A stretch of DNA of 64,000 nt from positions 55,028-119,027 of the forward strand of contig CAZSBG010000003.1 in the NCBI GenBank assembly GCA_964605145.1. The letters run 5' to 3'. The stretch's first letter is position 1. Every line of letters begins with the position of its first letter. This document shows, in pieces, positions 37,096 to 41,287 of the stretch. Both the position numbers and the translations under genes were made by a program. The DNA comes from an uncultured Cytophagia bacterium (GTDB lineage Bacteria > Zhuqueibacterota > Zhuqueibacteria > Thermofontimicrobiales > Thermofontimicrobiaceae). The notes beneath the pieces were generated by a model. It was not told the DNA's origin, did no database searches, and saw only the letters and a list, made by a program, of their open reading frames with translations.

Positions 37096-40000
37096 TTAAT
37101 CTTTCCAATCACACAACGATTCCACATACGCGGCAGAGCCATCGCGGAGCCAGCTATCCAATTGAGCGGGCTCTTTCAACTGCTGGCCCCGCATACGTGG
37201 CACCACCACAAATCGATGTTTTAATTCGCTCAATCCGGTCATATCACCCCACAACTTCTCGAACTGGGTGACAGGGAAAATATCTTCCTGGCCTTTGCCC
37301 CAGCGTTTTTTCACGTCTTTTAGTGTGATATAGGTCGGCATTCGAGCAGCGAGAATGCGCACCGCGTTGGAGACTTTTGTTGCATCCGACAGATCATCTT
37401 TGGTCAAATCGAACACTGCCAAAAGTTGATCCACATCCACCCAGGTGGTGCTAGTGTTGTAAAAAGTCAGATCGAATTCCAGTTCTTCTCTGGGGAAGGC
37501 AAGGCTCTCAATCAATCGTAATTGTCCATCGACGCGCGCCAGCCCGCCGCCGCGATCTTCGAGACGCCGCGTGATCACTTCGGTGGTCATGGATGCGCCC
37601 TGTTCGATATGATATCCCAAAATCGCAGGATTCACATCCGCGCCCAACGTATCGATGTTATGGACCATCAAATATTTCAGATTGGGATTTTCATTCAGCA
37701 ACTGTTTGAGCACACCATTTCGAAACAGATTCGGCACCTCGTACCAGTGCCCCACCGGGTGCAGGCATTGCATGGGAATGTTATCGATATAATCACTGCC
37801 TTCGCCCATCTGTCGGGCCCAATCGATGAGCGCGTTGTGGAGACTTTCCAGCACTTTTTGCGCCTGTTCATCGAGAAGCTGCTGCGGCATTTCCTCCCAG
37901 GCGAACCGCAAATCGCGCGTCATGGGCACCAGCCTCAATCCCACAAACATGCCGGGTGAGAGGATTAACTGGCCGGGATACGCATAATTCTGCTCCTGTT
38001 CCAAAAATGACTGAATCGGCTCGTGCGTCAAATAGCTGGTTGTTACCACGTGCGGAATATATTTTCCAACCTTCCCGCCAATCTGCCGGCTTTTCGCCAA
38101 ATGCACTTCGATAAACGTGCGATGCCTGCCATTCAGTTTGCAAAAGGGATTCAGCGCTTTCACCACGCCGGCACCTTTGGTCCAGCGACTGCCTGCGCCG
38201 CCTGCAAGCGACACCACAGCTAACGCGCCTTCAGCCAGTGCTTCCTCTCCCAAACGGGCGTATTTTTCCGGCAATCCGCAAGTGGCATCCATTACGTCTT
38301 CCGGGTGCACATCTTCAATTTTGCTTCGTACCGGCAGCCGGTTTTGCGCCAATCCGATACGACCGCTTCTCAAATCAGCGCGAATCTGTTCGTGCTGCAC
38401 CCGATCAAAGCCGTACGCTCGCAGCAATTCTTCCAGGGTTCGGGCGCCGTCATTTTCACGATCCACGTTCGGCATGAGCCGATCGAACAAATTTTGAACC
38501 ATCCCTGAAAGTTCGGGCTGGGTTCGGCACGCTTCGCCAAAACGATTGAGTTCAGCCCGACGGAAGGACGACATGGTTCGTGCTTCAATCTTGAGCAGCG
38601 CAGGGATGGACTGGGTGTAGTAACCGGGCGGCATGAGCGCATCTTCATCCAGTAACAGATCTGCCCATGTGCCGCTGTCGTTAATCGTGAAATCGTATAC
38701 CACCGGCTCCATGGCAAACGGGACTGCTTTTTCAAGATTCTTTTTAACGCGGGCCATCATCTTTTGCAGTTTATCCTGGGCTGCCTGTTTTACTTTTGGA
38801 TCGAAAATGAATCCCATACCACCGCCGGACATACCGCCCAACATCCAAAATCCCCAGAACATTTTATTAAATTCTGCTTGCACATTTTCGATGAGTGTTT
38901 CGGTGTATAAATTGCTCGCCCATGGAATGATCGTCTGGATGGGCCCGACAAAATTTCGATGCGTTGAGCCGCCAATGTCGCGCACCTTCCCCTGTTTCAA
39001 TTGGTCAATAATTTGATCCAACAGGGCGATGGCATTTTTCCGTCCCAGCCACTCTGCTTCGGTTCGCAGCAGGTATTTTTCCGTGACCATTTCCAAAATC
39101 GGACCGACATCCTGCGCCATTCCGCCGTGCACAAGAATCAGACTTTCCTGAAGCATGTCGCGCGTTTTTTCATCTACATCATTCAAGGTAAAAATCCGAT
39201 GTTTTGGCAGCAACCTGCCGCGACTGATTCCAAATTCAGGGTCGCTCTCGGTTGCCTTCACCCCCTGAATCAATTTCATGCCGGGCCACACGCCGCCGGA
39301 ATCCTGCCAGCCTCCGCCGGATCCGCCCAACCATTCACCCAAAATCGCTCGGGCGGCCACAAGTCGCCGTTCCTCTCCTGTTAAACCGCCAGTGAGATTT
39401 TTTATTTGACCGGTAGCGCGCATACAGACAGTGATCAAACTGGCCAAGAGTGTTGTTGACACCGCAAGTCGTGATCCCTTGGGAATATCATTCACACGAC
39501 TGACGATTTCAATGCCGTGCCCCGGGGCTACCAAGCGGGCCAGCAAGTCGGCCAGTGGTTGATCCGCGCCCTCCATTCCCGGGGGCACGAGACCGGAGGC
39601 AATGACCGCCGCTTTGAGCAATCCCAGATAATCCTTGGCAAAATCGAACACCTCGGTCAAATCCGTAATTTCCGTGCTTGCCTCCAAATCCACGCTGGTC
39701 AGCCGAAGCACCGGTTGATCGATGACCCGGAGATACGCTTCGACCGGCGGCCTGGGAGAATTGGCGCCATTGCGAACGCACAGGTTGATAGAAACATTGA
39801 GCACCCGTGCGCCCTCCGGGAAATCCATTCCCAGAAAGAAAATATCGCTCCAGCCGCTGTGGCTTAAATCCATTCGCACCGGTGTGGCTTCGCGAATGAT
39901 GGGGAAAATGCCATTTCGTTTGAATGCCCCGTAAAGCTCAGGACGAATGCGCAGCGGATGATCTTCCGGATGCCCGATGCGAAACATCCACTGGTTGCCG

Positions 40001-40446
40001 CGCACTGAACGAACGCTTCGCCTGACCTGGTTCGCCAGTGTCTGAAATCCCAATTGATGATACGCTTCAGCCAGCGCGCTGGAAATCCCCTCGCTCAGCC
40101 CCTCCTTGCGTTGGGCTTCCAAAAATATTTCAATGGCCTCTTCAAACCTGCGATTGAGCAAATTTGTGTAACCTTCAAAGGGGATGAGCCCACGCGTTCG
40201 CATCTCCTTCTTTAAAGGTAAATGAAAACGGTGAATGGCATAGAGGAAAAATAGCGCGCGAACCCGTTCATAGAGATTTTCGCTGCGAGAACGAAATTTT
40301 TCAAGGGCTTCGGTTTCTTCAATCAATTCCTTAAAAGACAATTCCCGGCAAATCGCTTCCAGGGATGTATTACGAATTTCAGTATCTGCCGAGATTATTA
40401 TTTTTACAAGATTGCTCATTCCCGGACTACCTCCATTTTGTGCCAA
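37096..40446 (-). CDS. Large fusion protein: unknown N-terminal region, GHMP-family sugar kinase domain, C-terminal UDPGP-family (UDP-sugar pyrophosphorylase) nucleotidyltransferase domain
   Basis: GHMP motifs [28 protein letters not shown] and [18 protein letters not shown] signature [15 protein letters not shown]...KAL and [15 protein letters not shown]. It overlaps the upstream GalU-like gene by 20 nt. Confidence 0.6.
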
Positions 40447-41287
40447 TTTCGCGGACGGCTAAAATCTCGACAAATTTCGACAGAACTTCATCGCGATCTT
40501 TCCCACTCAACGCCAGCGCCAGTTGCGCCATGAGCAATCCATATTTCACGCCGACATCGTAACGCCAGTCATCTTTTTCAATGGCAAGGTACTGCTCCCG
40601 TTTTGCCAGTTCTGCCAGAGCCTCTGAAAGTGTTATGCCGGGACTCTCACCGGGATCTTCGATGAGTCGTTCCAGGATATCAAAAACAGTGGGCGTAAGC
40701 ACATGCATGCCAAAGAAACAAAGATAATAGCCGGCGCGCAGGCCGGGCACGATCAATCGCTGCTCCGCTTCCGTGGGCGTGGCTTTTTCGATGACTTCAT
40801 CAATGCGGTACAAATCCGGCTGGCCCTGAATCCGACCGCCACCAATGGCGCCGTAAAATGGAAGAAGATTTTCCCGCGACGCCTGCACGGCTGATACCGC
40901 GCATTCTTTAGTCTCCGCCACTCGCACAAGATGCTGAGCGCATCCTTCTTCGTGACGGCTCACATAAAGATGGTCTCCCACCAGATGCAAAAATGAATCA
41001 TTCCCGATGAAATTTTTGGCGCAATACACAGCATGGCCATAGCCAAGCTGCTGCTGTTGATGTTCAAAATGGAGGCGCCCGGCATGATCGCCCACAACAT
41101 CCCGGAACGCAACTTCATCTCCGGGTTGTGTGATCACGCAAATTTCCTCCACACCGGCTCTCAGCGCCTCTTCCACAATGATTCGCAGCACAGATTTTTC
41201 AGTCCCGTCCCGATCGATGAGCGTCTGAATCGGCAAAGTGCGCTGATTTTTCCCGGCTGCTGTAATAACAGCTTTGGTGATTTTCAT
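40427..41287 (-). CDS. Sugar-1-phosphate nucleotidyltransferase, UTP--glucose-1-phosphate uridylyltransferase (GalU) family
   Basis: [15 protein letters not shown] (compare KAVIPVAGLGTRMLP in GalU), GYGHAV and EKATP motifs; 286 aa. Confidence 0.65.

Follow-up and report, generated by a model that had tools for sequence, protein, structure and literature searches.

The window analysed here is the whole stretch of 64,000 nucleotides of contig CAZSBG010000003.1 from an uncultured Cytophagia bacterium. On its minus strand lie two adjacent genes that, judged from their sequences, look like one operon: a GalU-like sugar-1-phosphate nucleotidyltransferase gene and a large gene whose product is predicted to combine a GHMP-type anomeric sugar kinase and a UDPGP-family pyrophosphorylase in one polypeptide (Table 1). 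A preliminary description of this DNA had placed two open reading frames (ORFs) at these coordinates; both exist there on the minus strand, and every motif that it quoted is present in the translations.

Table 1. Positions of the gene pair, of the features within and around it, and of the glycosyltransferase cluster in the window.
Feature	Positions	Strand	Remarks
Promoter-like site TTGATA-17-TATATT	41314..41342	-	In the gap (124 nt) before the GalU-like gene
GalU-like sugar-1-phosphate nucleotidyltransferase gene	40427..41287	-	286 aa; stop codon 40429-40427
Shine-Dalgarno sequence GGAGG of the large gene	40430..40434	-	10 nt upstream of ATG 40419; inside the end of the GalU-like gene
Large fusion gene	37096..40419	-	1107 aa, three domains; ATG at 40419, stop 37096-37098
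N-terminal all-helical domain, residues ~1-172	39904..40419	-	Helical in the AF2 model
Fucokinase-type GHMP kinase domain, residues ~173-600	38620..39903	-	
Variant GHMP motif II/P-loop, residues 312-322	39454..39486	-	Contains GSRLAVST
GGGWQD, residues 368-373	39301..39318	-	With predicted catalytic base Asp373 (FKP Asp762)
Inter-domain linker, residues ~601-690	38350..38619	-	Least conserved
Complete eukaryote-type UGPase-like (UDPGP, PF01704) domain, residues ~691-1107	37099..38349	-	
Glycosyltransferase cluster GT2, GT9 (heptosyltransferase-like), GT4, then MsbA-like ABC exporter	48134-53077	-	Overlapping stops and starts

The large ORF had been given as 1116 aa, which results from a mechanical TTG start at 40446. 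We assigned the start to the ATG in Table 1 because the relatives are about 1107 aa long and GGAGG precedes that ATG. The sequence of the junction, AAA TGG AGG TAG tccggga ATG, leaves a 7-nt spacer between the two genes, and the 20-nt overlap and translational coupling described earlier were an artefact of the start codon chosen. The promoter-like site agrees with the consensus at 10 of 12 positions and was the top-scoring site in 36300-42400; it is a consensus match only and may not be of the host's promoter type. An AT-rich spacer of 183 nt follows the large gene. No riboswitch or leader RNA was matched in Rfam, and no anti-phage defence module was matched by PADLOC. The GC content of the large gene was 52%, compared with approximately 44–48% in its neighbours, and the excess was located at codon positions 1 and 2. 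The GC content at codon position 3 (0.57 and 0.53) was inside the range of the window, so the composition gives no sign of recent transfer, and recent horizontal transfer was rejected as the source of the high GC content.

The UDPGP model PF01704 matched the large protein with an E-value of 4e-16, scoring 59.1 bits for the whole protein and 62.6 bits for the isolated region against a cut-off of 22. This alignment covers only the central third of the model (profile positions ~162–283 of 413); the domain itself has the complete UGPase/UAP fold with its catalytic motifs. Of the Pfam models proposed in the preliminary description, PF01704 was thus recovered, but the GHMP models PF00288 and PF08544 gave no match to the whole protein at E ≤ 0.01 or to the isolated kinase region even at E ≤ 10. 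Because of this, the GHMP status rests on the fold and on homology to FKP, the Bacteroides fragilis L-fucokinase/GDP-L-fucose pyrophosphorylase (PDB 5YYS, 9IIT, and 9IIP). Residues ~186–465 aligned at 2.6e-19 with positions 612–857 of NCBIfam PRK13412, which lie in the kinase half of FKP. Searches with phmmer and family profiles matched the kinase region to crystal structures of FKP with E-values from 1e-9 to 1e-18, and its predicted structure is the two-lobe GHMP fold; the FKP kinase is its closest relative in both sequence and fold. A divergent relative, P0275, passed PF00288 with 27.8 bits against 22.3. These results place the large protein in the UDPGP family and, by fold and catalytic residues, in the GHMP superfamily, which bears out the earlier claim that both enzymes are present in one polypeptide.

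The AlphaFold2 (AF2) model of the 1107-aa protein had a mean predicted local distance difference test score (pLDDT) of 89.7 and a predicted template modelling score of 0.89, and the pLDDT fell below 50 only at residues 651–658. The pLDDT was 60 when the alignment consisted of 37 sequences that were all ≥70% identical, and it reached 89.7 when 12 relatives at 30–54% identity were swapped in (26 sequences in total). Since the kinase homology starts at approximately residue 175, the N-terminal region comprises ~172 residues and not the ~270 described earlier. No Pfam match at E ≤ 10 and no PDB profile match were obtained for this helical domain, which is always located ahead of the kinase. In FKP, a three-helix linker is packed on the kinase (PMC11982464), and full-length FKP aligned with the large protein over ~90 residues more than the FKP kinase alone, which suggests that the helical domain is the counterpart of the FKP helical linker.

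Predicted active sites of the two proteins

The active-site residues of FKP were transferred to the 1107-aa protein through a HMMER alignment, and the residue numbers below follow that protein. In the FKP kinase, these are Arg592, Trp599, Asp601, Thr602, the Gly-rich loop 712–720 with Ser719/720, Glu751, Gln761, and the base Asp762 (PMC11982464). The equivalents are R182, W190, D192, I193, the loop 312–322 with S321/T322, E362, Q372, and D373, and they are invariant in alignments across many phyla, with an invariant Ile at the position of Thr602. The predicted catalytic residues D373, R182, and E362 (D762, R592, and E751 in FKP) are accompanied by an invariant Gly-rich loop of GHMP motif III (the A900 region of FKP). 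As regards L-fucose as a candidate substrate, the FKP sugar contacts W599, D601, Q761, and D762 are conserved, and T602 is replaced by Ile.

The P-loop GSRLAVST is invariant in the core family; the corresponding segment is PAGSGLGTSS in FKP and GSGLAVST in divergent relatives. Compared with the motif II consensus PxGSGLGSS, the loop retains the Pro, the first Gly-Ser pair, the Leu, and the Mg-binding Ser, and it has Arg and Ala in place of two Gly residues. Because the divergent relatives have GSGLAVST, the change of Gly to Arg is a fixed feature of the core clade.

In regards to the rest of the chain, the large protein would work like FKP but is placed outside the FKP family, because it fails the NCBIfam cut-off and has no N-terminal guanylyltransferase. 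Its score with the whole-protein FKP model NF009948 was 68.5 bits against a cut-off of 721, and the kinase half alone aligned. FKP carries a GMPP-like NTP_transferase domain and a β-helix at its N-terminus. In the large protein, by contrast, the 172-residue helical domain occupies the N-terminus, where no NTP_transferase match was found, and the pyrophosphorylase is C-terminal and of the UDPGP (UGPase) type; the pyrophosphorylase family and the domain order thus both differ from FKP, as described previously. The helical subdomain before the kinase is common to both. At this locus, the short NTP_transferase has a gene of its own upstream and resembles GalU rather than FKP.

The nearest relatives of the UDPGP domain are the UDP-glucose pyrophosphorylases (UGPases). 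It shares the fold of the eukaryote-type UGPase-A enzymes (Trypanosoma brucei 3GUE, Aspergillus fumigatus 7PPR/8C0B, and Arabidopsis 2ICX) and their motifs, namely the nucleotide-binding loop, GH, NxDxLGA, D.KGG, and the C-terminal Lys of VPRxRGQQLK, all of which are kept in the core family and in most divergent members. It differs from them in its low identity (~20–23%), in that the putative uracil-contacting Gln is not evident, and in its location inside a kinase fusion.

The 286-aa partner matched Pfam NTP_transferase at 5.6e-11, and its best PDB match was Bacillus subtilis YngB (1.6e-23). The closest NCBIfam family was galU (TIGR01099), at 107.6 bits against an equivalog cut-off of 326.8. 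The sugar-1-phosphate half that it shares with GalU, YngB, and GalF (GxGHA, GD, the Lys of EKP, and YDxG) is conserved as G82..A86, D105, E167-K168-P171, and the R242-Y-D region, which align to YngB. In contrast, the signature loop GxGTRxLPxTK...KEMLP (AAGLGTRFLPATKAxPKEMLP in GalU) is replaced by AA(G/A)xxQRxLPLQTLxDRDG, in which conservation is limited to Q-R, LP.Q, and DRDG; the first Gly varies. The invariant residues of the partner family are Q14-R15, DRDG, Q77, G82, D105-H106, E167-K168, and P171. The protein is GalU-like, as in the earlier assignment as a second GalU-type nucleotidyltransferase, but it is not an ordinary GalU, with its nucleoside triphosphate (NTP)-binding loop remodelled. 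It may be either a nucleotidyltransferase that handles NTPs differently or a regulatory subunit that binds a ligand.

Changes in both nucleotide-binding loops would also suit a protein in which the kinase-like domain is a non-catalytic sensor of a sugar or nucleotide, the large protein is an allosteric UDP-glucose pyrophosphorylase, and the partner is a GalF- or GMPPA-like regulator. The P-loop deviates from the Gly-rich consensus (Gly to Arg and Gly to Ala), the Pfam GHMP models fail, the GxGT motif and Lys are lost from the NTP loop of the partner, and the NCBI name of the large protein is that of a UGPase; a similar loss is seen in regulatory paralogues such as GalF. However, the equivalents of the FKP base, Arg, Glu, Mg-binding Ser, and sugar contacts are invariant across at least 10 phyla, and the N-lobe of the kinase is the most conserved part of the large protein, as expected of catalysis and not of a decayed site. 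Moreover, the Arg of the P-loop is itself invariant, which argues for adaptation rather than drift. We consider a pseudo-kinase highly unlikely and retain a catalytically active kinase as the preferred reading.

Distribution and genomic context

A protein search gave at least 8000 matches for the large protein, and the best 120 were nearly all full-length (~1107 aa) with 70–85% identity. When one genome per species was scanned, the fusion was found in at least 589 genomes and at least 10 bacterial phyla; the carriers included Chloroflexota, Acidobacteriota, Verrucomicrobiota, Planctomycetota, Rhodothermales, Ignavibacteria, Calditrichota, Armatimonadota, Myxococcota, Eremiobacterota, Lentisphaerota, and KSB3. 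For both proteins, the closest named relatives belong to Candidatus Zhuqueibacterota (81% and 87% identity). Clustering at 50% reduced the core family to a few representatives, and divergent full-length relatives at 30–54% identity, including Omnitrophota proteins, were found outside it.

The fusion was intact across these phyla, and neither a split gene nor a misassembly was seen in the relatives. That an assembly error, a frameshift, or a chance ORF gave rise to the fusion is practically out of the question: the matches come from independent assemblies, the single-chain model is confident, and the architecture persists at identities as low as 30% and in a eukaryotic copy. This copy, P0273 (KAK2962578.1), is a 1292-aa homologue with 38% identity encoded on a 667-kb contig of the oxymonad protist Blattamonas nauphoetae, and it probably represents a bacterium-to-eukaryote transfer. 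In another relative, P0345 (1246 aa), the order is circularly permuted, with the UDPGP domain first and the helical domain and kinase following it; the permutation is a separate, independent line of evidence for joint action of the three domains.

The mean pairwise identity was 0.71–0.74 inside the well-sampled Chloroflexota, Acidobacteriota, and Verrucomicrobiota and 0.67 between phyla. The nearest neighbour came from the same phylum in 65 of 78 cases, and a few transfers among phyla were clear (e.g., Myxococcota–Verrucomicrobiota at 0.85). Columns conserved at ≥95% made up 40–52% of both catalytic domains. The linker alone was relaxed, with a mean pairwise identity of 0.53 at residues 596–730 compared with 0.69–0.75 in the catalytic lobes.

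Across 80 related loci, two gene families were conserved, the fusion and the GalU-like gene, and no other. The GalU-like gene was located directly upstream on the same strand in 73 of the 80 loci, or 73 of the 75 informative ones, given that 5 of the 7 remaining loci have <300 nt of upstream DNA. The partner is genetically locked to the fusion protein, unlike GalU, YngB, and GalF. No epimerase, phosphatase, or transporter gene was conserved as a third member in these loci, the next real family occurring in 8 of 80. The partner gene is kept with 4-nt overlaps in relatives at 54% and 45% identity, and in the 45% lineage the partner is 32% identical and retains the DRDG..K.VL segment. In the clade with the GSGLAVST P-loop (P0275, P0279, and P0268), no GalU-like neighbour was found. 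Candidate fusions of a GalU-like domain to the large protein (P0285 and P0331) gave patchy partial matches that are probably gene-call artefacts and were not used.

The divergent relatives occur in other settings. The fusion is embedded with a ROK sugar-kinase domain in P0264 (2318 aa), which adds an inositol-monophosphatase-family (IMPase) domain, and in P0279 and P0391 (2939 and 3096 aa; locus L082, 8001-16820). At L082, the giant fusion gene is preceded by the gene for a 7976-aa protein with HAD and Glycoamylase domains. The divergent P0256 lies in an operon of overlapping genes in the Omnitrophota metagenome-assembled genome GCA_016177145.1 (L085, 1-12084), after the gene for a protein of >1667 aa that starts with UDP-glucose/GDP-mannose dehydrogenase domains and before genes for proteins of 317 and 701 aa without a Pfam match. 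The 317-aa gene was considered as a cryptic partner and ruled out by its lack of similarity. P0275, whose P-loop looks canonical, is located amid six radical-SAM genes, a GT2 gene, and an AP_endonuc_2 (sugar-phosphate isomerase-like) gene (L081, 5790-18272), a context quite unlike that of the core family.

Proposed reaction sequence and alternatives

We consider it probable, with some reserve, that the gene pair encodes a self-contained bicistronic module for sugar activation, in which the two active sites in one compact body of the large protein act in succession and the partner is accessory. The GHMP domain would use ATP to phosphorylate the anomeric hydroxyl group of a sugar, with Asp373 as the base, Arg182 and Mg2+ stabilizing the leaving ADP, and Trp190, Asp192, and Gln372 holding the pyranose. 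The UGPase-like domain would then convert the sugar 1-phosphate and an NTP, most probably UTP, to an NDP-sugar and pyrophosphate (PPi). The helical domain may pack on the kinase like the helical linker of FKP, probably for oligomerization or domain docking. The GalU-like protein would be an accessory subunit that either catalyzes a second nucleotidyl transfer, in which nucleotides are handled differently, or regulates the module by binding a sugar phosphate or NDP-sugar, because the half that holds the sugar 1-phosphate and the catalytic Lys is kept and the NTP loop is rebuilt. We infer this order of reactions, the identity of both nucleotide and sugar, and what the partner and the helical domain do from the conserved features described above, and the same applies to the sugar and the nucleotide in the preliminary reading of the locus as UDP-sugar salvage.

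By analogy, the logic of the module would be that of FKP, of the zebrafish glucuronokinase and putative UDP-GlcA pyrophosphorylase DrGKUP (PMC3938481), and of plant sugar-1-kinases acting with UDP-sugar pyrophosphorylase (USP) (PMC3659416). DrGKUP is likewise a natural fusion of a GHMP sugar-1-kinase and a pyrophosphorylase proposed for UDP-sugar salvage, but it is eukaryotic, carries a short nucleotidyltransferase of bacterial type at the N-terminus and the glucuronokinase at the C-terminus, and contains no UDPGP domain; its pyrophosphorylase activity could not be demonstrated (PMC3938481). The salvage routes of plants and trypanosomatids use the same chemistry and the same families, a GHMP kinase followed by a UDPGP-family USP, as separate proteins (PMC3659416 and PMC6329318).

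Several points weigh against this proposal. The P-loop departs from the canonical Gly-rich motif, which makes ATP binding an assumption, and the kinase is not recognized by the Pfam GHMP models. UTP is the probable nucleotide but not a secure one, because the uracil-contacting Gln, which we take to be that of FnQS in UGPases, appears to be replaced in the equivalent segment, LSPG. Three relatives at 46–51% identity have no adjacent partner. Two pyrophosphorylase-type active sites per kinase are not accounted for by a simple linear salvage, and a conservation as extreme as 67% between phyla is not usual in salvage enzymes, a hint that the role is more central or more constrained.

The last point would suit a previously unrecognized near-housekeeping complex with three active sites, spread over much of the bacterial tree beyond the classical model phyla, that makes or interconverts a central nucleotide sugar and bypasses the path through hexokinase, phosphoglucomutase, and GalU. 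For example, a direct anomeric kinase for glucose or another hexose would feed the UGPase domain, and the remodelled GalU-like subunit would perform a second non-canonical transfer or gate the flux. The conservation would then reflect an obligate hetero-oligomeric machine. We regard such a complex as rather unlikely.

In regards to the substrate, the context of the divergent relatives (ROK kinases, an IMPase-family domain, and a UDP-glucose/GDP-mannose dehydrogenase-like protein) is compatible with the metabolism of hexoses and UDP-hexoses. A sugar phosphate as substrate would fit the ROK and IMPase associations equally well, which is a further point against the proposal. The GHMP domain may then act on C1 of a sugar phosphate, such as a hexose 6-phosphate from a ROK kinase, and form a 1,n-bisphosphate; a phosphatase would take off the distal phosphate, and the UDPGP domain, the GalU-like protein, or both would nucleotidylate the sugar 1-phosphate. 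HddA/WcbL, an anomeric kinase from the same GHMP subgroup (GGGxQD), is paired with the nucleotidyltransferase HddC in this manner, but these are separate proteins that act on a sugar phosphate, need the phosphatase GmhB, and form a GDP-sugar. A route of this type is rather unlikely, and a free sugar is kept as the substrate of the proposed module.

The presence of two pyrophosphorylases per kinase would be explained by a catabolic shunt of the Isselbacher type. The kinase and UDPGP domains would turn a sugar other than glucose (e.g., galactose) into a UDP-sugar, a housekeeping epimerase would convert it to UDP-glucose, and the partner would run in reverse with the released PPi to give glucose 1-phosphate and UTP, so that UTP and PPi are catalytic. 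The pyrophosphorylase route for galactose is established biochemistry, the tightly conserved pair does hold two distinct pyrophosphorylase-type proteins, and the partner retains the half of GalU that holds glucose 1-phosphate and the catalytic Lys. However, no epimerase is conserved beside the module, no transporter or catabolic regulator is nearby, several relatives have no adjacent partner, and the remodelled NTP/PPi loop is odd for an enzyme handling PPi and UTP. We consider this shunt unlikely and keep sugar activation by the module as the preferred reading.

No paper describing or characterizing a GHMP–UDPGP fusion was found in the open-access literature, in agreement with the preliminary description. 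Thousands of copies are already present in public databases under the name "UTP--glucose-1-phosphate uridylyltransferase". This generic UGPase name hides two-thirds of the protein, and metabolic reconstructions of these environmental lineages may miss a sugar-activation step. If the proposed mechanism is correct, one natural polypeptide, built from a fucokinase-type GHMP kinase and a eukaryote-type UGPase, would lead from a sugar to a UDP-sugar in hundreds of species; these belong to Chloroflexota, Acidobacteriota, Verrucomicrobiota, Planctomycetota, and further phyla that have been studied little. FKP-like fusions are workhorses of chemoenzymatic glycan synthesis, and a counterpart that makes UDP-sugars would be of practical use. 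The unusually flat and high conservation and the remodelled obligate GalU-like partner point to enzymology or regulation outside current models of nucleotide-sugar metabolism.

Other genes in the window

The products of the module had been suggested to feed a downstream glycosyltransferase cluster. The lipopolysaccharide-core-like cluster of GT2, GT9, GT4, and MsbA-like genes (Table 1) is instead located 7 kb upstream of the module, with four unrelated genes between, and it is absent from the 80 related loci. None of the neighbours in the window (YhhN, GNAT, PAS/GAF hybrid kinase, and rubrerythrin) recurs in those loci. The hybrid sensor kinase, two genes upstream of the module (42934-46722, minus strand) and not conserved with it, is a 1262-aa protein with up to four PAS and two GAF domains, HisKA/HATPase, and a C-terminal receiver.

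On the other side of the module, the minus strand carries ORFs of 1444 aa (23808-28142) and of 422 aa without a Pfam match (31586-32854), and a gene for a DUF6635 protein (29689-30708). The plus strand at 34913-36244 encodes a 443-aa protein in which a ChaN/Tiki-type haem-binding domain is fused to a C-terminal PDZ domain.

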